Shown in pieces: positions 51,666 to 60,601 of a stretch of 64,000 nt of DNA. The notes under the pieces are model-generated. The model did not search any database and was not told where the DNA came from. It saw only the letters and a program-made list of their open reading frames with translations. The stretch is from an uncultured Verrucomicrobiota bacterium (GTDB taxonomy: Bacteria; Verrucomicrobiota; Kiritimatiellia; CAIQIC01; Lenti-01), in assembly GCA_964393515.1 (NCBI GenBank), contig CAYMTY010000003.1, positions 42,002 through 106,001 on the forward strand. The letters are read 5' to 3'. The stretch's first letter is position 1. Each line of letters starts with the position of its first letter. The position numbers and the translations under genes were made by a program.

Positions 51666-53420
51666 ATGCTCCACCTCCTCCCAGCCCCCGCGTCCCTGCA
51701 GCTGCGCGACGGAACCCTGACTCTCCCGGCGCCGCCGACGGCCTGCGTCCCCGACCACCTCGACCCGCGCGTGGGCAAGGTCCTGCACGAGCTCTTCCCC
51801 GGGCTCCACCACATCGCCTGTCGCCAGCAGCGCGCCGCCCTCCGCCTCGAAACCGCGCCCGGCGCCCCCGAGGCCTACCGGCTGCGCATCACGCCGGTAT
51901 GCCTGGAAATCACCGCTGCCGGTGCCGCGGGCTTCTTCTACGCCCTGCAAACCCTCCGCCAGATCCTTCCGCAGAGCGGAGGCGCCTTGCCCTGCCTGGA
52001 GATCGAAGACGCCCCGGTCTTCCCCCTGCGCGGCTATTCCCTCGACGTCAGCCGCGGGCGCGTCCCGCGCCCGGAAATGCTCCAGCGCCGCATCCGCCTG
52101 CTGGCCAGCCTCAAAATCAACCACCTCCAGCTCTATTTCGAGCACCCCTTCCGCTTCCGCTTCGATCCGGACATCGCCGGCGCGGACGACGCCTACGACG
52201 CCGACGACCTGCAGGCGCTGGACACCTTTTGCCGCGAGCATTTCATCGAACTCGTCCCTTCCTTCACCTGCTTCGGCCACCTCGGCCGCATTCTTTCGCT
52301 TCCCCAGTACCGCGAGCTGGCCGAGGTCGAATTCCCGGCGCCTTCGTGGGCGGCCGCCACCTGGCGCCAGCGCCTGCACGGCGCGACCCTCAACTCCCGC
52401 GACCCCGACGCCCAGGAACTCCTGCGCCGGATCCTCGCCGAATTCCTCCCCTGTTTCTCCTCTTCCCGCTTCAACCTGTGCGGCGACGAAACCTACGACC
52501 TGGGCCGGCGCATGCCCAACGCCGCGCCCGCCGACCGCGCCCGCCAGTACACCGACCACATCCGCTTCCTGCAGAAGGAAGCCGCGCGCCACGGCAAGTC
52601 CCTCATGCTCTGGGGCGACATGCTCCTCCACCACCCCGACGCAATCTCCGCCCTGCCCGAAGGCTGCGAAATCCTCGACTGGGCCTACTTCCCTTCCAAC
52701 AAATTCGAAAAATGCGGCGAGTTCATCACGCGCGGCCTGGCCACCATCGTCTGTCCCTCCGTCCGCGGCTTCGGCCGGGTTTTCCCGGCGGTCGAAGAGG
52801 CCCGCACCGTCATCGCCGCCTACGCCCGCACCGGCCGGCGCCTCGGCGCGCGCGGCCTGCTGAACACTGACTGGGGCGACTACGGCCACTTCAACCTGCC
52901 CCCCGGCGCGCTCCACGGCCTCGCCCTCGGTGCACACCTCGCCTGGAATCCCGCCCACGACGAAACGGAAGCCTTCGACGCCGCCTTCTCGAAAATCCTT
53001 TTCGGCGCGGAGGACTTCCGCCCGGCCGGCCTCTTCCTGCGCGCCGGCTCCGTCCCGGAAAACCTCGCCGCCTGGCCCTTCCCGCCGCTCAAGGACCTCC
53101 CGCTGCCCGCCGACCCCGGCCCCGCACGCCATGTCGCCGAACAGGCCCCGCTCTGGGCCGAGGGCTTTGCCAACCTCAAACCCACCGCCTGGGCCGACGA
53201 AACCGATCTCGCCCAGCTCGCCCTCGCCTGCCGCTTCCTCCAGTTCAACGCCCTGGTCGCTTCCGGCGCCCCCGCCGGAAAAACCCGCCCGTTGCTCGAC
53301 GACCTCGAAAAGGCCTATACCCCGCTCTGGTTCGCCGAAAGCCTCCCCCGCGGCCTGCTGGACATCCATTCCCGCGGCTTCGAACCCATGCGGGCACTTT
53401 TGGATAAAGGCGTCACTTAA
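51666..53420 (+). CDS. GH20 beta-N-acetylhexosaminidase (cytoplasmic; no signal peptide). Its last codons are supplied by the inserted islet
   Basis: LEIEDAPVFPLRGYSLDVSRG (GH20 catalytic-domain start); catalytic region NLCGDETY (HxGGDE-like). Confidence 0.75.
   Translation: MLHLLPAPASLQLRDGTLTLPAPPTACVPDHLDPRVGKVLHELFPGLHHIACRQQRAALRLETAPGAPEAYRLRITPVCLEITAAGAAGFFYALQTLRQILPQSGGALPCLEIEDAPVFPLRGYSLDVSRGRVPRPEMLQRRIRLLASLKINHLQLYFEHPFRFRFDPDIAGADDAYDADDLQALDTFCREHFIELVPSFTCFGHLGRILSLPQYRELAEVEFPAPSWAAATWRQRLHGATLNSRDPDAQELLRRILAEFLPCFSSSRFNLCGDETYDLGRRMPNAAPADRARQYTDHIRFLQKEAARHGKSLMLWGDMLLHHPDAISALPEGCEILDWAYFPSNKFEKCGEFITRGLATIVCPSVRGFGRVFPAVEEARTVIAAYARTGRRLGARGLLNTDWGDYGHFNLPPGALHGLALGAHLAWNPAHDETEAFDAAFSKILFGAEDFRPAGLFLRAGSVPENLAAWPFPPLKDLPLPADPGPARHVAEQAPLWAEGFANLKPTAWADETDLAQLALACRFLQFNALVASGAPAGKTRPLLDDLEKAYTPLWFAESLPRGLLDIHSRGFEPMRALLDKGVT
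53281..53392. repeat. 112-bp direct repeat, left copy (3' end of the GH20 gene); identical copy at 56675-56786
   Basis: Exact 112-bp identity seen directly (AAACCCGCCCGTTGCTCGACGACCTCGAAAAGGCCTATACCCC...CGAACCCATGCG). Confidence 0.85.
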
Positions 53421-53558
53421 ATCCCCCCCCCCGCTATCCGGCCCGCACGGAGGCGGGCCCTCCATAAACCTGTTTTCGCATTTCACACTCTGGAGGGATG
53501 ACCTCCGTGTCGTCCGTCCCGGCCGGGCTCCTGCTGGCGCGGCAGACAGCCTTCGCCA

Positions 53559-55124
53559 TCACGGCCCGACACGGACGCGGTAATGCCCCATGGCGTTCGT
53601 GTCCGGAGGAAGCGCCAGAAATGCCGGTTTCGCCGTGGGCGGCAGGTTGGTGAATACCACTTCCCAGCTCGTGCCCGTGGCCGTCAAATCCACGCACCGT
53701 TCCAGATATTGCGTGGCCCGGCTGCCTCCCATCCAATTCACCCGGAATTGGTCGTTGGAAGCATCCACCCCCAGCATCGCCAGCCGCGAATCGGACTGCG
53801 TTGGATCGGTATCCGCCCGGACTTCCGCGCCGTCCGGCATGCCGTCCCCGTCGGAATCCGCCGCTGGATTCAGATATTCATAGGCACCCATGTCCATGAT
53901 GGCCACGCCATCGGCATTGCCGTCCAGCGGTCTCGGCACTCCGGCCAAATCGGCGCCCGGCGCCAGATCGGCATTGCTCCCCGCATCGATGCACGGGGAG
54001 TTCGACTGCAACCGGTAATCCCCAGCCACAAAATTGGTTCCGGACCAGTTGCCGGGATCGATGAATACCGGATCGTTCGTAATATTGCCCGCCCCATTCG
54101 TCGGCATCGGCACGGTACAGCAATTTATGAATATTCCATTGGAATAGTTATTTCCCCAATTCATGTAGACGATGCTGTTTAGCTGCGTACTGCAGGATGT
54201 GCCTCCGGCTCCCCACCGACCACTCTGGTTTCCAACAACCGTACAGTTGTTTAAAATGCATCTGTCCGCCCCTAATTGGTTGTTTACAACAATGCAATTG
54301 TTCAGTGTCGCTACACATCCCCCACTTCCCCAATTATTTACCAGTATGCAATTGTTTAGCTCAGATTGAGCCCCGCCAGCACAAAACACACCCCCACGGC
54401 CGTGGTTGTATGAGAATACACAGTTATTAATTACGGAATGTATAACAGTCCCAGAACCCAGATTTGTGTTGAAAAGAAAAAAGCAGTTGAAACACATACC
54501 CGATCGGACGGCACTACCAGTATAGCCAATATTATTCGTAAAAGTACAATCGATCATGGTCCCTCCGAAAGCAGCACCACCACGCCATGCTGCATTGCAT
54601 GAGAAGATGCAATTGGATACGATTACATTTGTGCCCTGACACCAGATTCCGCCACCATTCTCTTCTGTACCATTATTATCATTAACGGACGTTGAACCCT
54701 GGGCCAGCGTGAATCCAACAAGTGAAGCCCCATTTGTCAACCATACGCATCTCACTGAGTTGGGCCCCAAATTAAATACATATACTGTTGGATAATTTGT
54801 ACCCATAATCATGGTCGAATCCGGCCCATTCACCGACCGCAACGTAAGCGGCTTGTCGATCACGACCCGATTCGTAAGTGTGAAAACACCACCCGCCGGA
54901 CGTCCGCCCTTATCATAAATGCCGTTGGTGACCCAAACGGTATCGCCGGCGGCGGCGGCATCGATGGCGGCTTGGATGGTCTGCTTGGCGTTGGCCCACG
55001 AAGTGCCCGCGCCGGCATCGCTGCCCGAAGGCGAAACAAAGAACTCCGCCGCCCAAAGGTCAACCGCCGCCGCCAGCATGATTATCCAACCGATGGCATA
55101 ATAATGATTTCGGTTCCGGCTCAT
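53559..55124 (-). CDS. Secreted right-handed parallel beta-helix repeat protein (adhesin/lyase-like fold)
   Basis: Signal peptide; FVSPSGSDAGAGTSW...AAAGDTVWV N-terminal motif; many NN[CV] beta-helix rungs; Asp-rich calcium-binding-like segment; lower GC. Confidence 0.55.
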   Translation of the reverse strand: MSRNRNHYYAIGWIIMLAAAVDLWAAEFFVSPSGSDAGAGTSWANAKQTIQAAIDAAAAGDTVWVTNGIYDKGGRPAGGVFTLTNRVVIDKPLTLRSVNGPDSTMIMGTNYPTVYVFNLGPNSVRCVWLTNGASLVGFTLAQGSTSVNDNNGTEENGGGIWCQGTNVIVSNCIFSCNAAWRGGAAFGGTMIDCTFTNNIGYTGSAVRSGMCFNCFFLFNTNLGSGTVIHSVINNCVFSYNHGRGGVFCAGGAQSELNNCILVNNWGSGGCVATLNNCIVVNNQLGADRCILNNCTVVGNQSGRWGAGGTSCSTQLNSIVYMNWGNNYSNGIFINCCTVPMPTNGAGNITNDPVFIDPGNWSGTNFVAGDYRLQSNSPCIDAGSNADLAPGADLAGVPRPLDGNADGVAIMDMGAYEYLNPAADSDGDGMPDGAEVRADTDPTQSDSRLAMLGVDASNDQFRVNWMGGSRATQYLERCVDLTATGTSWEVVFTNLPPTAKPAFLALPPDTNAMGHYRVRVGP

Positions 55125-55158
55125 GCGCTTCCTCCAAAGAAATGCCCCACCAGTCTAT

Positions 55159-55992
55159 TCATTCGGCCATAAGAATTCCAACGAAAGTTGCCGAGATCGC
55201 GCGGCAAACCTCGGCAAACTCGATATCCTTGGCATAATCGAAATCCCGGCGATAGGTCTTCCAGCGCCCGGCCATGACCGCGCTGGCTTCGATTGCCCGC
55301 ATGATTTCCTTGTGCTGTTTCAGCAACTGAAACGTGCCGCGGCGCCTGGCGGTCGCCGGCAACGCCTTCCGCAGGACTTCCCAATCGATTTTCCAGGCAT
55401 ACAAGCGCCGCAACAAATGAACGTCGTAGAAGTCCCGCATCCGCGTGTTCAGATCGCCCCGCGCCAAGATGGTTTCCAGTTTCTCCGCCAGGATGGTTTC
55501 CAGGTTGTAGGCCAACACCCGGATGGCGCGCGATCCGGGCCGGACCGGATAATCGAACGGCATTTCGCGCGGCGTGATCTTGTCGCCCGTCGTGAGGTCT
55601 ACCTTCAAGGGCACCGCCATGGGCGGGCATTTCGCCTCCAGCGACAGCCGCAGACCGCCGTATTCGTCGCCTTGCCGGATCTCTTCGAGGCCCTTCACGG
55701 CGAACGAGACTCCGTCGTCGATCCGCACGGCGCAGATATCCCGGAACATCCGCCGAACGCCGGCGGCGGTGACCGGCATCCGCCGGATGGTTCCGTCCAT
55801 GTCCATCGTGGTCCGCGTGTCGAGTCCCGCCAGGGCGGAAATCAGCAATCCGCCCTTGAGAACGAAGTTCCGCCGATAGTTGGACAGCGAGATGCGCTCC
55901 AGCAACCGCTCCAACATGTGGTTTTGGAGGGCCAGCTGCGCGGAAATACCCTTTTTGCGCGCCACCATTTTCATCCGGGCCTTCAACTGCAT
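55159..55992 (-). CDS. AbiEii/AbiGii-family nucleotidyltransferase toxin (type IV TA / abortive infection)
   Basis: DUF1814-like sequence (VLKGGLLISAL...DMDGT...) with an NTase-fold GS...D.D motif; immediately downstream of the AbiEi-like gene. Confidence 0.7.
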   Translation of the reverse strand: MQLKARMKMVARKKGISAQLALQNHMLERLLERISLSNYRRNFVLKGGLLISALAGLDTRTTMDMDGTIRRMPVTAAGVRRMFRDICAVRIDDGVSFAVKGLEEIRQGDEYGGLRLSLEAKCPPMAVPLKVDLTTGDKITPREMPFDYPVRPGSRAIRVLAYNLETILAEKLETILARGDLNTRMRDFYDVHLLRRLYAWKIDWEVLRKALPATARRRGTFQLLKQHKEIMRAIEASAVMAGRWKTYRRDFDYAKDIEFAEVCRAISATFVGILMAE

Positions 55993-56000
55993 CGCCGGCT

Positions 56001-56594
56001 TCACAGCAACGTCTCCAGATAGGCTCGGACCCTGCTTTCCACGTGCAGCAGTTTCGCATAACTCGAAATTCGGGGAATGTTTTTGTCGCGCCGCCGGATA
56101 TATCGCTTGAAGGCTTCGGAAACGATCTGCGCATCGGTTCCACTGCGGCCCTTCAGGATGTCGCACAACGTCCGTTCCGCGTTGTAGGCCCGCACCGCAT
56201 GGCCGGCCGGCGTTTGTACCGCCACGACACCCAAGCCGTGCAGTTCCATTTTTACCCGATTGGTTCGGACATGCTCTTTCCGCAAGGCTCCGGTGTTATA
56301 ACCCGCGGGAAAAGTCATGCGGAACCGGTCGGGCGTACGATCGGTAAGCCCATGCAGAAACAACGCGGTCTCCAACGAAAAAACGCCCCGCTTGAACCGG
56401 CTTTGGATCGTCAAGAATTCGTCTTCCAGCGCTTTCGGCAGCATATAGACTCCGCGGTTCACCCGCTCCAGACGGCCGCTCGCCGCCAGCGCAGTTAGAT
56501 TTCCGCGCAGGATACCGGCCGCCGTCACTTGAGCCGCCGTCACGGTTCCGCCATGCCGGCGTGCGATTTCCAGGATTTTTCCGCTCCGTGTCAT
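56001..56594 (-). CDS. AbiEi-family antitoxin/transcriptional regulator
   Basis: N-terminal wHTH (ILEIARRHGGTVTAAQV...GRLERVNRGVYML) typical of AbiEi; operon with AbiEii. Confidence 0.65.
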   Translation of the reverse strand: MTRSGKILEIARRHGGTVTAAQVTAAGILRGNLTALAASGRLERVNRGVYMLPKALEDEFLTIQSRFKRGVFSLETALFLHGLTDRTPDRFRMTFPAGYNTGALRKEHVRTNRVKMELHGLGVVAVQTPAGHAVRAYNAERTLCDILKGRSGTDAQIVSEAFKRYIRRRDKNIPRISSYAKLLHVESRVRAYLETLL

Positions 56595-56674
56595 TGTCCC
56601 GAGATTGACTTTCATGCATGGATAATAGATATAAGCGTGCATGAATGTCAATTCGACTTTTGCCTCCGCCGCGC

Positions 56675-56786
56675 AAACCCGCCCGTTGCTCGACGACCTC
56701 GAAAAGGCCTATACCCCGCTCTGGTTCGCCGAAAGCCTCCCCCGCGGCCTGCTGGACATCCATTCCCGCGGCTTCGAACCCATGCG
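56675..56786. repeat. 112-bp direct repeat, right copy (displaced original 3' end of the GH20 gene)
   Basis: Identical to 53281-53392. Confidence 0.85.
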
Positions 56787-56910: not shown

Positions 56911-57960
56911 ATGAGTCGTGCATCCAACAATCCCCTGCCAGGCAAGGCCGGCGGGACCCGCCGCGAAAAAATCTGTCGTTTGTGCACGCCGGTCCTGCTG
57001 CCCCTGTGCATCCTGCTCTACATCCTGGCCGTGGCCGGCTACGCCGTCTGGTCCTACCGCGAGCACAAGACCCGGCTGCTGGCGGAAATCGATTCCGGCC
57101 TGCTCCAGGCCGCCCGCAGCCTGAAATATCTGCTCGCGCCCGACTTCCACGACCGCGCGCTCGCGCCCGATTCCATCGGCCGGGACGAAGAGCTCCGCAA
57201 TCGGAAGCTGGTGACGGATTTCGGCGTCGAATCCGGCTTCAAGTGGGTCCAAACCATCGTCGAAAAGGACGGCGCGTTTTTCTTCTCCGCCCCGTCCGTT
57301 TCGGAGGAGGAAGCCCGCGAACGGGAATCGTGGTACTTCTATCCCTACGAAGACATCCCCGCGGAATTCGTCCAGGGCTTCCAGGACAACCAACCCGTCT
57401 TTCTCGAGTTCACCGACCAGTGGGGCACGTACCGTTCCATCGCCCTGCCGCAGCATGCGCCGGGCGGGCGCCGCTACCTGGCCAGCGCCGACCGGGACAT
57501 CAGCGACATCCGCCGCCTGCTCCGCCAAAACCTGCTGCAATCCACCGCCGTCGCCGCCTATTTTCTGCTGGCCAGCCTGCCCTTCCTGCTGCTCCTGGCG
57601 CACATCTACCGCGTGCATACGGTCGACCTGAAGCGCCTCAACGCCGAACTGCAGGATCACAAGGACACGTTGGAAATCCAGATCCGCGAGCGCACCGCCG
57701 CCCTCCAGCAGGAAACCAAACGCCTGCAGACCGCCCTCGCCAATGTCCGCACCCTGAGCGGCTTGCTGCCCATCTGCGCTTCGTGCAAGAAAATCCGCGA
57801 CGACAAGGGCTACTGGAACCAGTTGGAACTCTACATCCAACAGAACTCCGACGCCCAGTTCTCGCATGGCCTGTGCCCCGAATGCTTGGCCAAACTGTAT
57901 CCCGACCTCACCCTCGAGAAGCCTTTTCCCGGCGCCGAGGATCCGCCCGCTGCTCCTTGA
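56911..57960 (+). CDS. Membrane sensor protein: TM - periplasmic Cache-like domain - TM - coiled coil - C-terminal Cys4 motif (PICASCKKIRDDKGYW...HGLCPEC)
   Basis: ORF track; two hydrophobic segments flanking a ~160-aa extracytoplasmic region; conserved cysteine-rich C-terminal tail of unknown function. Confidence 0.55.
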   Translation: MSRASNNPLPGKAGGTRREKICRLCTPVLLPLCILLYILAVAGYAVWSYREHKTRLLAEIDSGLLQAARSLKYLLAPDFHDRALAPDSIGRDEELRNRKLVTDFGVESGFKWVQTIVEKDGAFFFSAPSVSEEEARERESWYFYPYEDIPAEFVQGFQDNQPVFLEFTDQWGTYRSIALPQHAPGGRRYLASADRDISDIRRLLRQNLLQSTAVAAYFLLASLPFLLLLAHIYRVHTVDLKRLNAELQDHKDTLEIQIRERTAALQQETKRLQTALANVRTLSGLLPICASCKKIRDDKGYWNQLELYIQQNSDAQFSHGLCPECLAKLYPDLTLEKPFPGAEDPPAAP

Positions 57961-58031
57961 CCCCCCCCGCCCGGCCGCCTTGCGCGCCGGCGGCGGATCC
58001 TCTATTCTGGACCCGTTTGCCGGACCTTGCC

Positions 58032-58376
58032 ATGGAAAACCCCGTGCCAGCCGCCGCCCCGCCGCCCACCCGGGCCGAACGCCTCAACCGCGCCTTCGGA
58101 CCCGTCGTCGCCGGGCTCATCATCGACTTCGTGGATCTGGCGACCTTCGGCCCCATCGGCCTTTACCTCGGCCTGCCCATCGGCGCCTTCGCCGGCTACT
58201 GGATGGGCCGCGCCCTCGCTCTCCCGAAGAAAACCTCCCTGCTCTGCGCGCTGGCCGCCGGCATCTACTGCATGATCCCCGGCACGGAAATGCTCCCGCT
58301 CGCCACCCTCGTCGGCGCCTGCGCCCGCTATTCCGAATCCGCCCCCAAGCCGCCCGCCCCCGCCCCCAAGCCATGA
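58032..58376 (+). CDS. Small 2-TM membrane protein, proline-rich tail
   Basis: C-terminal part of a longer track ORF; start at MENPVP; hydrophobic segments VVAGLIIDFVDLATFGPIGLYLGLPIGAFAGYW and LLCALAAGIYCMIPG. Confidence 0.4.
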   Translation: MENPVPAAAPPPTRAERLNRAFGPVVAGLIIDFVDLATFGPIGLYLGLPIGAFAGYWMGRALALPKKTSLLCALAAGIYCMIPGTEMLPLATLVGACARYSESAPKPPAPAPKP

Positions 58377-60127
58377 GCCGTCCCGGCCGCCTCTTCTTCG
58401 CCGCCGTCGTGCTCGCGATCCACACCGCCGCGGCCGGCCCCGTCCGCGTCTCCTTCCTCGACACCGACGCCGCCCGCGAAGACACCCTCCGCGCCTTCGC
58501 CCGCGCCGGCTGCGACACGAACCACCTCGCCGCGCTCCGGAAAGCCATCCTCCACTACTATCGCACCCCGCTCGCCCTCGACACCTCCGCCTTCCCGCCC
58601 GCCACGGATGGCTTCCGCGAGTTCGCCTCCATCTCCGGTTTCGTCGCCGCCCTCGGCACCAACCAGCTCTCCTTCCTGGACCACGACTTCGAGTTGAACT
58701 GCTACGACACGGCCGTGCTCCTGGCCGGGCCGGAGATGGATGCGGCCGTCGATCTGGAAACGCCGGGCGCCCCCTGGCTGGCCATCCAGGTCACCACCAA
58801 CTTCACCGAATGGCTGGAACCCGTGGTCTCGCTCGGCGATGTGGCCGCCATCGCCCATCCGGCCTGGTACACGGACTTCGTGCGGGACATCGCGCAGTAC
58901 GAATTCCCGGAAAAACACCGGATCCTCAACTCCGTCTTGTACCAGTACCAGACCTTGCCGCGGGACACCTCGGCGGAAACCGTCGCGGCGGAAACGCAGG
59001 CGGCCCTGCGGAGGCATTGGCAGCGCGGCGGCGTCCGGTTCCCGGAGAAGGTCTCCCTCATCCTGCTCCACCGCGCCCGCACCGAATACCACCTGGTGGT
59101 CACCGACCACGCCGGCGTGCTGCTCCAACAGGAAAACGGCTGGCTCTACCTTGAAAAGACTGGCGGCAAGGGCCCCTTCCTCCGGATCGATGTGAAAGAC
59201 CCCGCCGACCTCGCCGCCTACTTCGCCACCATGACCTGGCCGGACTATCCCTTCAATTACCTGTCGATCAACGATGATCTTTTCCTCGACGTTCCCCTCC
59301 GGCCGCGCGCCCTGCCGCAGTTCCTGCCCGTCGCCGAACGCGCCAAGCGGGCCATCCGCCGCCGCTGCGCCGAAATCTCCCCCGCCCCGCTCGACGCCCG
59401 CGGCTATGCTGCAACCGCCGAACTCAACCTCGTCCCCGGCGTCCGGCTGGAAGACATCCGCGCCGACTACGCCCAGGGCAGCGGCAACGAACTGGAAGGC
59501 AAGTTCCGCGCCGCCCACTCCTCCTCGGCGCTCGCCGCCAACACCTTCGGCCCCTGGCGCACCAATCCGCCGGCGCTGTGTCTGCATGGCTGTCCCGGCT
59601 ACACCGCCATGCAATTCGAGAAGAAATGCCCGACCGGCCTCGGCGGCATCCCGCCCCATCTCGACCTTCTGGTGGAAAATTCCAACGTCGTCATCGGCGT
59701 CGAATCCAAGTTCCTCGAAATCCTCACCCCCAAGCAGCCGAAATTCACGAAGAGCTACCGGCTCGAGAACCTGCCCCGGATGGAGCCGTGCTGGGCCGAG
59801 CTGCTGGAATCGCTCAAAACCGGTCCGAAGCAGTACCTCGACGCCGCCCAGCTCGTCCGCCACTACCTCGGCCTCCGCAACCGGCCGGAATGCCAAGGCA
59901 AGCGCGTCATCCTCCTCTACCTCTTTTGGGAGCCCGAAAACTGGGCGGACTTCCCCGAATACCGTCAGCACCGCGCTGAAATCTCCGCATTCTACGACCG
60001 CGTCAAGGACTCGGCCGTCGAATTCACCTGGCTCCCCTACGCCGATCTCTGGCGCATGTGGGATGCCCTCGGCTTCGCCTCTGACCACGTGCGGGAACTC
60101 CGCCGACGTTACGGCCTGGCCATTTGA
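58373..60127 (+). CDS. Secreted hypothetical protein with N-terminal transglutaminase-like Cys/His region and C-terminal PD-(D/E)xK-like motif
   Basis: Signal peptide MSRPGRLFFAAVVLAIHTAAAG; ELNCYDTAVLLAG and VVTDHAGV (possible Cys/His dyad); HLDLLVENSNVVIGVESKFLE (D...ExK). ATGA overlap with the preceding gene. Confidence 0.4.
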   Translation: MSRPGRLFFAAVVLAIHTAAAGPVRVSFLDTDAAREDTLRAFARAGCDTNHLAALRKAILHYYRTPLALDTSAFPPATDGFREFASISGFVAALGTNQLSFLDHDFELNCYDTAVLLAGPEMDAAVDLETPGAPWLAIQVTTNFTEWLEPVVSLGDVAAIAHPAWYTDFVRDIAQYEFPEKHRILNSVLYQYQTLPRDTSAETVAAETQAALRRHWQRGGVRFPEKVSLILLHRARTEYHLVVTDHAGVLLQQENGWLYLEKTGGKGPFLRIDVKDPADLAAYFATMTWPDYPFNYLSINDDLFLDVPLRPRALPQFLPVAERAKRAIRRRCAEISPAPLDARGYAATAELNLVPGVRLEDIRADYAQGSGNELEGKFRAAHSSSALAANTFGPWRTNPPALCLHGCPGYTAMQFEKKCPTGLGGIPPHLDLLVENSNVVIGVESKFLEILTPKQPKFTKSYRLENLPRMEPCWAELLESLKTGPKQYLDAAQLVRHYLGLRNRPECQGKRVILLYLFWEPENWADFPEYRQHRAEISAFYDRVKDSAVEFTWLPYADLWRMWDALGFASDHVRELRRRYGLAI

Positions 60128-60601
60128 CTACGATTGTTCCGCCGGACCGTCGTCTGGAAGGTTCTCAAGGTCATCCAGATCTTTATGTCGGCCGGATGCG
60201 CGCTTGTTGCGCAACAGATGCTCGCGGGAAATCAACTGGACAGGCAGGCCGTCGATGTCCGCCGTGACCCGGGCGGCATAACATTCCGCAAAATCCACCC
60301 CATCAATCTCGGTCAGCACCTCGATCCGCATCGGCGGCAAGCCCATGCGAATGATCTTGCCCCGCTCCTGGAACAAGGCCGGCTTCAGTTGGTCGTCCTG
60401 CATGCCAAACCGGTGGAAAACATCAACCAGTTTGGCGGCATTGTCCGGCGAGATGGCCACCCAAATGTCCATGTCAGCCGTGGCGCGCGGATAGCCGTGA
60501 TACCCAACGGCATAGCCGCCGATCAACAGATACTGAACGTCAGCGTCGTTCAGCAATTTCAAGAATTCTTTGAAGTCTTCGGGCAGTGTCTGCGCGGCCA
60601 T
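60128..60601 (-). CDS. Minimal nucleotidyltransferase-fold protein (MNT-like)
   Basis: LLIGGYAVGYHGYPRATADMDIWV fits the NTase hG[GS]x9-13Dh[DE]h motif. Start at MAAQTLPEDF; the track ORF has a longer N-terminus. Confidence 0.5.
   Translation of the reverse strand: MAAQTLPEDFKEFLKLLNDADVQYLLIGGYAVGYHGYPRATADMDIWVAISPDNAAKLVDVFHRFGMQDDQLKPALFQERGKIIRMGLPPMRIEVLTEIDGVDFAECYAARVTADIDGLPVQLISREHLLRNKRASGRHKDLDDLENLPDDGPAEQS

Follow-up and report, generated by a model that had tools for sequence, protein, structure and literature searches.

In a 64,000-nucleotide stretch of DNA from an uncultured bacterium of the class Kiritimatiellia (Verrucomicrobiota; GenBank contig CAYMTY010000003.1, positions 42,002 to 106,001; hereafter, the window), four neighbouring genes encode a Cache-type membrane sensor with a cysteine-rich tail, a small membrane protein, a 584-amino-acid (aa) protein that joins a DUF4300 domain to a REase-ARP nuclease domain, and a minimal nucleotidyltransferase (NTase). 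An initial annotation, made from the sequence alone, had suggested that sensor, secreted effector and NTase form a single module for signalling or defence. We find instead that these are probably four functionally separate genes, lying in an interval from GH20 to uvrD that is prone to rearrangement and insertion in one Kiritimatiellia clade, and that the sensor is probably an orphan membrane signal transducer; taken jointly, we believe these two statements with more confidence than doubt. Each part is of a known kind (Cache sensor, DUF4300 surface protein, PD-(D/E)xK nuclease, AbiEii-like NTase), and as a module the cluster is ordinary, a set of resident and accessory genes, which removes a speculative defence-system candidate. 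Two of them are new variants: a signal transducer whose sole output is an unnamed, very abundant Cys/His domain, and a restriction-fold nuclease behind a signal peptide.

The four genes across one clade

Independent gene calls on four near-identical public contigs (L001-L004) yield the same four genes, and each open reading frame (ORF) that the initial annotation had placed here is present; we regard all four as real. The ATG of the gene for the 584-aa protein overlaps the TGA of the small membrane protein gene as ATGA, and the genes for the 584-aa protein and the NTase converge with abutting stop codons (60127/60128). The initial annotation is thus partly supported: its domain-level calls hold, and its module-level reading does not. 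It had named co-occurrence of the sensor with its partners in other genomes as one check on the module, and the partners are, for the most part, not conserved together. The four proteins also match no defence model in PADLOC-DB (best E values 0.038 and 0.093, at chance level), nothing in PHROGs and, beyond chance level, nothing in NCBIfam.

We compared the locus across about a dozen Kiritimatiellia lineages, with 11 loci assessable for counts. The window and its closest relative, L092 (sensor 92% and UvrD 98% identical), share the order GH20, sensor, small transmembrane (TM) protein, fusion, where 'fusion' denotes a gene for both DUF4300 and REase-ARP. Other loci differ: GH20-fusion-TM-sensor in L094, sensor-fusion-AAA_14-TM in L093, and GH20-DUF4300-AAA_14-TM-sensor in L088. 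L109 has GH20, an AbiE pair, a 42-aa NTase remnant, a 328-aa protein with signal peptide and REase-ARP but no DUF4300, and then the sensor. The fusion and small TM genes of L095 have no sensor nearby, and its GH20-to-UvrD interval carries a KatG/Fur insertion; in L107 and L108, GH20-DUF4300 is followed by lpxB/lpxI, again with no sensor. The small TM gene occurs at 6 of the 11 loci. An NTase gene is present only in the window type and in L085, where it lies between GH20 and the fusion gene and is divergent from the latter, besides the remnant in L109; L092 has an EF-hand-like gene at the NTase position. In L088 and L093, an inserted gene for a 394-aa AAA_14/DUF4143 ATPase (L088:9056-10240, L093:8954-10138) separates the small TM gene from the DUF4300 or fusion gene.

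Wherever the locus could be assessed, the DUF4300 or fusion gene has GH20 upstream of it, and in three relatives the GH20 stop codon overlaps the start of that gene (L088:7983-7986, L094:7001-7004, L107:7001-7004), which identifies GH20-DUF4300 as the constant gene pair. It is the only one; the other partners are not co-located beyond inherited synteny. The order in the window, with the sensor and small TM genes between GH20 and the fusion gene, looks derived. Outside the clade, the sensor has none of these partners at the loci compared. A metagenome scan gave only 7 loci, and a genome-contig scan gave six full-length sensor loci, with no Kiritimatiellia, among the matches listed. At six genomic and six metagenomic full-length sensor loci (L005-L010, L096-L101), from Desulfobacterota, Spirochaetota, Planctomycetota and others, the small TM, DUF4300 and NTase genes are missing, and the neighbours vary (Lon; SerRS-TetR-RecQ; CorA/GGDEF). 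Collectively, the interval MscS-GH20...UvrD-BrkB/Rrf2-MnmA is syntenic but locally shuffled, and it gathers accessory, partly defence-type genes (AbiE, NTase, REase-ARP, AAA_14).

Several observations weigh against this picture of an orphan sensor among separate genes. The comparison draws on few loci, from some dozen lineages and mostly from metagenomic contigs. The sensor lies within 8 kb of a DUF4300 or REase gene at 8 of the 11 loci, despite at least five gene orders, and the small TM gene directly adjoins a DUF4300 or REase gene in the window type, L092, L094 and L095; since this proximity was kept through changes of order, a lineage-specific functional link among sensor, small TM protein and DUF4300 is possible. 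The NTase gene abuts the REase-bearing gene both in the window and in L085, and its remnant stands just upstream of that gene in L109, an adjacency that hints at shared origin or function. Finally, AlphaFold2 (AF2) confidence over the sensor's tail is low (predicted local distance difference test score, pLDDT, 50-67).

The sensor and its CCHCC tail

The AF2 model of the sensor (mean pLDDT 81.5) has an alpha/beta domain between the two TM segments. PAS-like, with a long N-terminal helix, this periplasmic domain matches WalK (4ywz), a formate chemoreceptor (8py0), CitA (8biy) and DctB (3e4p) when searched with Foldseek against the PDB (E 1e-5 to 5e-4, probability 1.00, target TM-score 0.6-0.74). 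No Pfam Cache model (sCache or dCache) was matched by the protein, nor any Pfam family at an E value of 0.1 or below; the 'Cache' label is one of predicted fold, not of sequence. As basic residues precede TM1, the N-terminus is predicted to lie on the cytoplasmic side. Pfam and NCBIfam scans detected no kinase (HisKA/HATPase_c), cyclase, GGDEF, EAL, MCP or helix-turn-helix (HTH)/DNA-binding domain, and the NCBIfam matches were at chance level and only over the coiled coil. Together with the Foldseek matches, these scans bear out the initial annotation, which had described a Cache-like sensor lacking kinase or cyclase. Profile matches of the helix region were to a myosin coiled coil and to the linker of DctB. 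Like WalK, CitA, DctB and the sCache chemoreceptors, the sensor thus consists of a TM helix, a periplasmic PAS-like domain, a second TM helix and a cytoplasmic signalling helix, with heptad-periodic linkers; unlike them, it has no known transmitter, and a 50-aa CCHCC tail is its sole cytoplasmic module.

Among 8000 candidates scored, at least 4769 are sensor homologues at an E value of 1e-3 or below, none of which carries a Pfam domain, and identity is 47-92% across named members of the Kiritimatiellia, Opitutae, Thermodesulfobacteriota and Spirochaetota. Three periplasmic motifs are invariant in the homologues (DFHDRA, WYxxPY and DxWGxxRS). In 110 of 116 homologues, a conserved Cache motif and the tail are separated by 111, 118, 125 or 139 residues, values in steps of 7 that fit a coiled coil obliged to stay in phase with the tail. 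The length of the coiled coil itself varies among lineages by 7, 14 or 21 residues, and the main classes of motif-to-tail distance are 118 and 139. At one Thermodesulfobacteriota locus, L096 (1177-2706, 9927-12356), a sensor homologue lies amid type VI secretion system genes (VipA/VipB, VgrG) and adjoins an AAA_15/DUF4276 pair and Lon, a setting not seen at other loci.

The initial annotation had pointed out a C-terminal 'Cys4' motif (PICASCKKIRDDKGYW...FSHGLCPEC) that it could not assign. The motif is there, and the tail is cysteine-rich and unassignable, but its conserved set comprises four cysteines plus an invariant histidine (C-x2-C-x26-H-x2-C-x2-C). In 230 of 230 instances the spacing is C-x2-C-x3-R-x3-G-x-W-x16-H-x2-C-x2-C, a fixed 36 residues; the first two cysteines, the histidine and the next cysteine are invariant, the last cysteine is kept in 229, and the tail lies 30 residues or fewer from the C-terminus in 206. 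In each tail protein whose layout was examined, the tail is the C-terminal module. A phmmer search with the last 66 residues matched 21,992 representatives of 50%-identity clusters at E values of 1e-3 or below, of which 16,405 reached 1e-10, and tail identity is ~50-80% across phyla. In the genome-contig scan, where tail-only matches predominated, at least 597 genome stretches were confirmed as relatives; carriers include the cultivable Geothrix oryzisoli and Desulfacinum infernum, and the phyla are Desulfobacterota, Spirochaetota, Acidobacteriota, Nitrospirota, Planctomycetota, Verrucomicrobiota, Bacteroidota, Ignavibacteriota, Calditrichota, Chloroflexota, Gemmatimonadota and others. Many of the top matches (P0280-P0322) hold two tails, for example at ~200-260 and ~460-520 of ~530 aa, and look like tandem fusions of two sensor-tail units.

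What precedes the tail is varied. In 79 tail proteins, the upstream domains are PAS (36), REC (13), Reg_prop/Y_Y_Y (8) and HAMP (6), with Cache, GAF and SBP_bac_3 found less often. No kinase, cyclase or DNA-binding domain is among the 25 commonest Pfam families of these 79 proteins, and because a conventional output domain is missing from that set, the tail occupies the output position. When the genes around 77 tail-bearing loci were clustered in search of a recurring partner, PAS-domain paralogues alone came up.

The tail has no Pfam or NCBIfam model and no sequence relative in the PDB, where the best match has an E value of 0.02 over 26 residues. The best Pfam zinc-ribbon matches, with E values up to 10 allowed, reach 13-19 bits where the cut-offs are 23-34, and each spans no more than one knuckle. 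We take the ligand spacing, with its paired C-x2-C knuckles and histidine, to be reminiscent of zinc sites. The tail shares with zinc-ribbon, treble-clef and ZAS domains its paired C-x2-C knuckles, invariant histidine, invariant aromatic core and length of ~45 residues; it differs from ZAS (H-x3-C-x2-C) in its H-x2-C spacing, and no named zinc family scores above threshold. We infer that the tail is a zinc-stabilised output mini-domain. Database names on tail proteins are generic (for example 'PAS domain S-box' or 'response regulator'). A literature search in which coverage of subscription journals was thin, and which is therefore weak evidence that the tail is undescribed, found no account of the motif or of such zinc-finger output domains. 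The tail is apparently an output domain that occurs very widely in bacterial one- and two-component proteins and has no name.

We consider the following model of signalling the most probable. The periplasmic Cache/PDC domain would bind a conserved ligand at a conserved pocket, and the signal would be relayed through TM2 and the heptad-stepped coiled coil to a dimer of CCHCC tails, whose pairing or orientation may control the binding of a highly conserved cytoplasmic partner. More broadly, though with somewhat less than even confidence, we suggest that the tail represents an undescribed major class of output domain, one that takes input from REC, PAS, HAMP, Cache or GAF domains through a phase-preserving coiled coil and acts by metal-dependent contact with a universally conserved target, unlike kinases, cyclases or HTH proteins; the same tentative proposal holds, secondarily, that some Kiritimatiellia export a restriction-type nuclease by way of a DUF4300 fusion. 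Signal-transduction censuses sort proteins by output domain, and an unnamed tail that ends PAS, REC and Cache proteins by the tens of thousands is a real gap. Once its target is identified, a function could be given to a large body of entries annotated 'response regulator' or 'PAS domain S-box', often of anaerobic lineages.

The predicted exported protein and its neighbours

The 584-aa protein (AF2 mean pLDDT 89.9) has a single hydrophobic stretch, at its N-terminus (residues 5-24, ending A-A-A/G). We predict a Sec signal peptide, because this n-h-c pattern, with its A-x-A site, is kept in all homologues. The N-terminal half matches DUF4300 (PF14133) at 32.4 bits, against a cut-off of 27, and has the fold of a solved member; the C-terminal half matches REase-ARP (PF22558) at 67 bits. 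The family comprises 39 clusters: 18 fusions, 17 stand-alone DUF4300 N-halves and 4 stand-alone REase-ARP proteins. A frameshift artefact was rejected as the source of the fusion, since it recurs in 18 clusters at 63-77% identity.

The DUF4300 domain contains the first two motifs quoted in the initial annotation (NCYDTAVLL and TDHAG). C110 and D245-H246 are conserved in all 35 homologues, and E261 is invariant; the AF2 model sets C110 at a helix N-terminus and D245-H246 and E261 on strands, and in that model the C110/H246/acid set looks like a Cys-His-acid triad. For the label 'transglutaminase-like' of the initial annotation, Foldseek gave low-probability support only, in matches of the domain to arylamine N-acetyltransferases and SseI, which have papain-like folds. 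Known DUF4300 members include CD630_07380 of C. difficile (PDB 9ow2) and the S. pneumoniae lipoprotein SPD_0792, from which the window's protein differs in sequence (~15% identity), in host (a diderm of the Planctomycetota-Verrucomicrobiota-Chlamydiota (PVC) group, not a Firmicute), in its coupling to GH20 and in its fusion to a nuclease. CD630_07380 is an exported protein whose inducers are WalR and lysozyme; the authors who described it suspected a role in peptidoglycan metabolism and saw no phenotype (PMC9210968). The DUF4300 part is probably a Sec-exported enzyme or binding protein, tied to GH20-linked metabolism of amino sugars or envelope glycans. The centre of the domain (window 58733-59362, residues 121-330) shares just 47-77% identity with L092, against 90-100% over most of the nuclease domain and 90-98% for the neighbouring genes. 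This contrast suggests that the exported domain has diversified locally or had its allele replaced.

The small membrane protein has hydrophobic regions at residues 21-58 and 68-97. It is a membrane protein, coupled through ATGA to the fusion gene, as the initial annotation had it, but the two spans ascribed to it could be two to four, as both regions are long. We found 175 homologous clusters at 58-91% identity, the few named ones all from Kiritimatiellia, and no Pfam domain. A role as immunity protein to the nuclease was rejected, as the protein occurs with a nuclease-less DUF4300 in L088 and is more widespread than the 584-aa family (175 clusters versus 39). It is probably a clade-specific resident gene.

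If the sensor, small TM protein, DUF4300 and GH20 formed a lineage-specific envelope module, then the sensor might monitor a periplasmic product that DUF4300 and GH20 release from amino-sugar glycans or peptidoglycan. The sensor, small TM and DUF4300 genes do stay within a few kb through at least five gene orders, and translational coupling or adjacency links the small TM gene to the DUF4300 or fusion gene. The nearest solved DUF4300 relative is exported and responds to WalR and lysozyme, and the sensor domain's best structural matches include the WalK extracellular domain. We nevertheless consider such a module unlikely. The region as a whole (MscS, GH20, UvrD, BrkB/Rrf2, MnmA) is syntenic in the clade, so that proximity may be inherited and not selected; L087, L095 and L107 keep DUF4300 without a nearby sensor; and a WalK-like match is generic for Cache folds. 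In phyla without DUF4300, moreover, the sensor keeps more than 47% identity, an argument that its ligand and role do not depend on DUF4300.

The C-terminal domain has the profile match, the core fold of restriction endonucleases and the catalytic residues of a PD-(D/E)xK nuclease, with E373, D431, E444, K446 and Q493 conserved in 21 of 22 sequences. The motif reported in the initial annotation is present, with the spacing D-x12-E-x-K and not x13. In its E...D-x12-E-x-K...Q motif and core fold it resembles REase-ARP proteins, restriction enzymes, NucS, McrC, Can2, Shedu, CdiA-CT and Tox-REase; it differs from these nucleases in standing behind a signal peptide with no adjacent immunity, methylase or ATPase partner. 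Placed behind an export signal and an exported domain, the nuclease would be expected to work outside the cytoplasm. We rejected a secreted polymorphic nuclease toxin of the CdiA-CT or Tox-REase kind, as the N-terminus holds a simple signal peptide and DUF4300 in place of delivery or trafficking domains, and there is no cognate immunity gene. Stand-alone REase-ARP genes elsewhere lie beside HEPN/DUF3883 genes on a plasmid and at a prophage edge, and a literature search, again thin for subscription journals, found nothing relevant on 'REase-ARP'. Some lineages have probably captured a mobile REase-ARP as a C-terminal fusion, which would yield a periplasmic or extracellular nuclease; whether a restriction-fold nuclease works in the PVC periplasm is a smaller but testable question raised by the fusion.

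The last gene was correctly called a minimal nucleotidyltransferase, as its hG[GS]...DxD motif (G28-G29...D43-x-D45) bears out. It matches PF10706 at 21.3 bits, just above the cut-off of 21, and more weakly DUF6036 and DUF2204; its best solved relative is PDB 8an4, a toxin of the AbiEii/AbiGii family (E 7e-4 over the active-site motif). Among its plasmid homologues, some have IS6 copies on both sides and others an AbiE pair next to them. The NTase thus shares with AbiEii, MenT and DUF6036 NTases the hGG...DxD motif, the 8an4 match and the mobile settings of its homologues; it differs in being only 157 aa long, in having no partner, and in family scores at or below cut-off except for PF10706. 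In the window it has no adjacent HEPN or AbiEi partner, its neighbours being the convergent 584-aa protein gene and uvrD. It is probably a sporadic mobile accessory gene of AbiEii/DUF6036 type.

REase-ARP and NTase could instead have arrived downstream of GH20 as a two-gene mobile conflict cassette, the REase then fusing in frame to DUF4300 and the NTase being mostly lost. NTase and REase genes abut in the window (convergent) and L085 (divergent), with the remnant just upstream in L109; an NTase is never seen at loci with DUF4300 alone; both families occur elsewhere in mobile or defence-type settings; and L109 carries a signal peptide and REase without DUF4300. This support comes to three observations, however, and is set against five fusion loci without NTase; stand-alone REase-ARP genes, whether plasmid-borne or at the edge of a prophage, have no NTase neighbour either. 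We rate joint arrival as rather improbable. Very unlikely, in our view, is that the fused REase-ARP is an inactive relic of a fusion accident and the 584-aa protein works only through DUF4300. In favour of this, a Sec signal peptide is an unusual leader for a nuclease of restriction type, and many relatives have DUF4300 alone. Yet the catalytic residues named above are kept in 21 of 22 sequences, the nuclease domain is 70-93% identical across fusions (and mostly 90-100% to L092, where the N-domain has diverged to 47-70%), and L109 retains signal peptide and REase after loss of DUF4300. To judge from this conservation, the captured nuclease is apparently functional.

Least of all do we credit the single module in which a Cache sensor responds to a cue and, jointly with the NTase, governs or arms the secreted nuclease: tight packing with ATGA overlap and abutting stops, nuclease and NTase folds with intact catalytic motifs, and an AbiE system next door speak for it, but the NTase is missing from L092 and most fusion-bearing loci, the sensor family occurs in many phyla without the partners, DUF4300 accompanies GH20 without a sensor in L107 and L087, PADLOC and PHROGs return no match, and the neighbouring AbiE is an insertion absent from a near-identical strain.

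Feature coordinates and the AbiE island

Table 1. Positions of genes, domains and the inserted island in the window.
Feature	Position	Strand	Extent	Basis or remarks
GH20 beta-N-acetylhexosaminidase, cytoplasmic	51666-53420	+		tblastn, 99.7% to L001 GH20; no signal peptide
Inserted island between GH20 and sensor	53393-56661		3.4 kb	not part of the cluster
Beta-helix/TSP3 protein gene (island)	53559-55124	-		
AbiEii (island)	55159-56166	-		PADLOC, E 7e-94
AbiEi (island)	56001-56651	-		PADLOC, E 1e-67
Sensor gene	56911-57960	+	349 aa	ORF; identical gene call on L001-L004
Sensor TM1	56977-57057	+	~residues 23-49	hydropathy; part of continuous helix 25-73 in model
Periplasmic single Cache/PDC-fold domain	57058-57525	+	~residues 50-205	Foldseek; AF2 pLDDT 90-98
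Sensor TM2	57541-57615	+	~residues 211-235	hydropathy; within helix 198-282
Cytoplasmic coiled coil/signalling helix	57616-57756	+	~residues 236-282	continuous helix in model
C-terminal CCHCC tail domain	57757-57915	+	residues 283-335	P-I-C-x2-C-K-K-I-R-D-D-x-G-x-W-x16-H-x2-C-P-x-C
Small membrane protein gene	58032-58376	+	114 aa	ORF
Fusion protein gene (export predicted)	58373-60127	+	584 aa	ORF
Signal peptide (predicted)	58373-58435	+	residues 1-21	...TAAA/GP; n-h-c pattern and A-x-A site conserved
DUF4300-family domain	58436-59302	+	residues 22-310	invariant C110, D245-H246, E261
REase-ARP PD-(D/E)xK nuclease domain	59390-60124	+	residues 340-584	E373, D431, E444-x-K446, Q493
Minimal NTase gene	60128-60601	-	157 aa	motif G28-G29...D43-x-D45

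On either side of the island between the GH20 and sensor genes stand direct repeats of 125 nt (53268-53392 and 56662-56786, 97% identical) that derive from the 3' end of GH20. The island is absent from L001, where the flanks are 99.9-100% identical, and GC content drops to 0.55 within it. We considered the AbiE pair as a member of the cluster and rejected it: it is a separate, complete system ~4 kb upstream of the NTase, on a direct-repeat island that the near-identical strain lacks. An AbiE pair 74-78% identical to the window's is likewise found downstream of GH20 in L109 (3897-6848). The end of the DUF4300 gene in L107 bears a 60-nt copy of the GH20 3' end (L107:7942-8001; 20 aa, 85% identical). 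This copy and the window's 125-nt repeats jointly suggest that the 3' end of GH20 is a recurrent site of recombination or integration.

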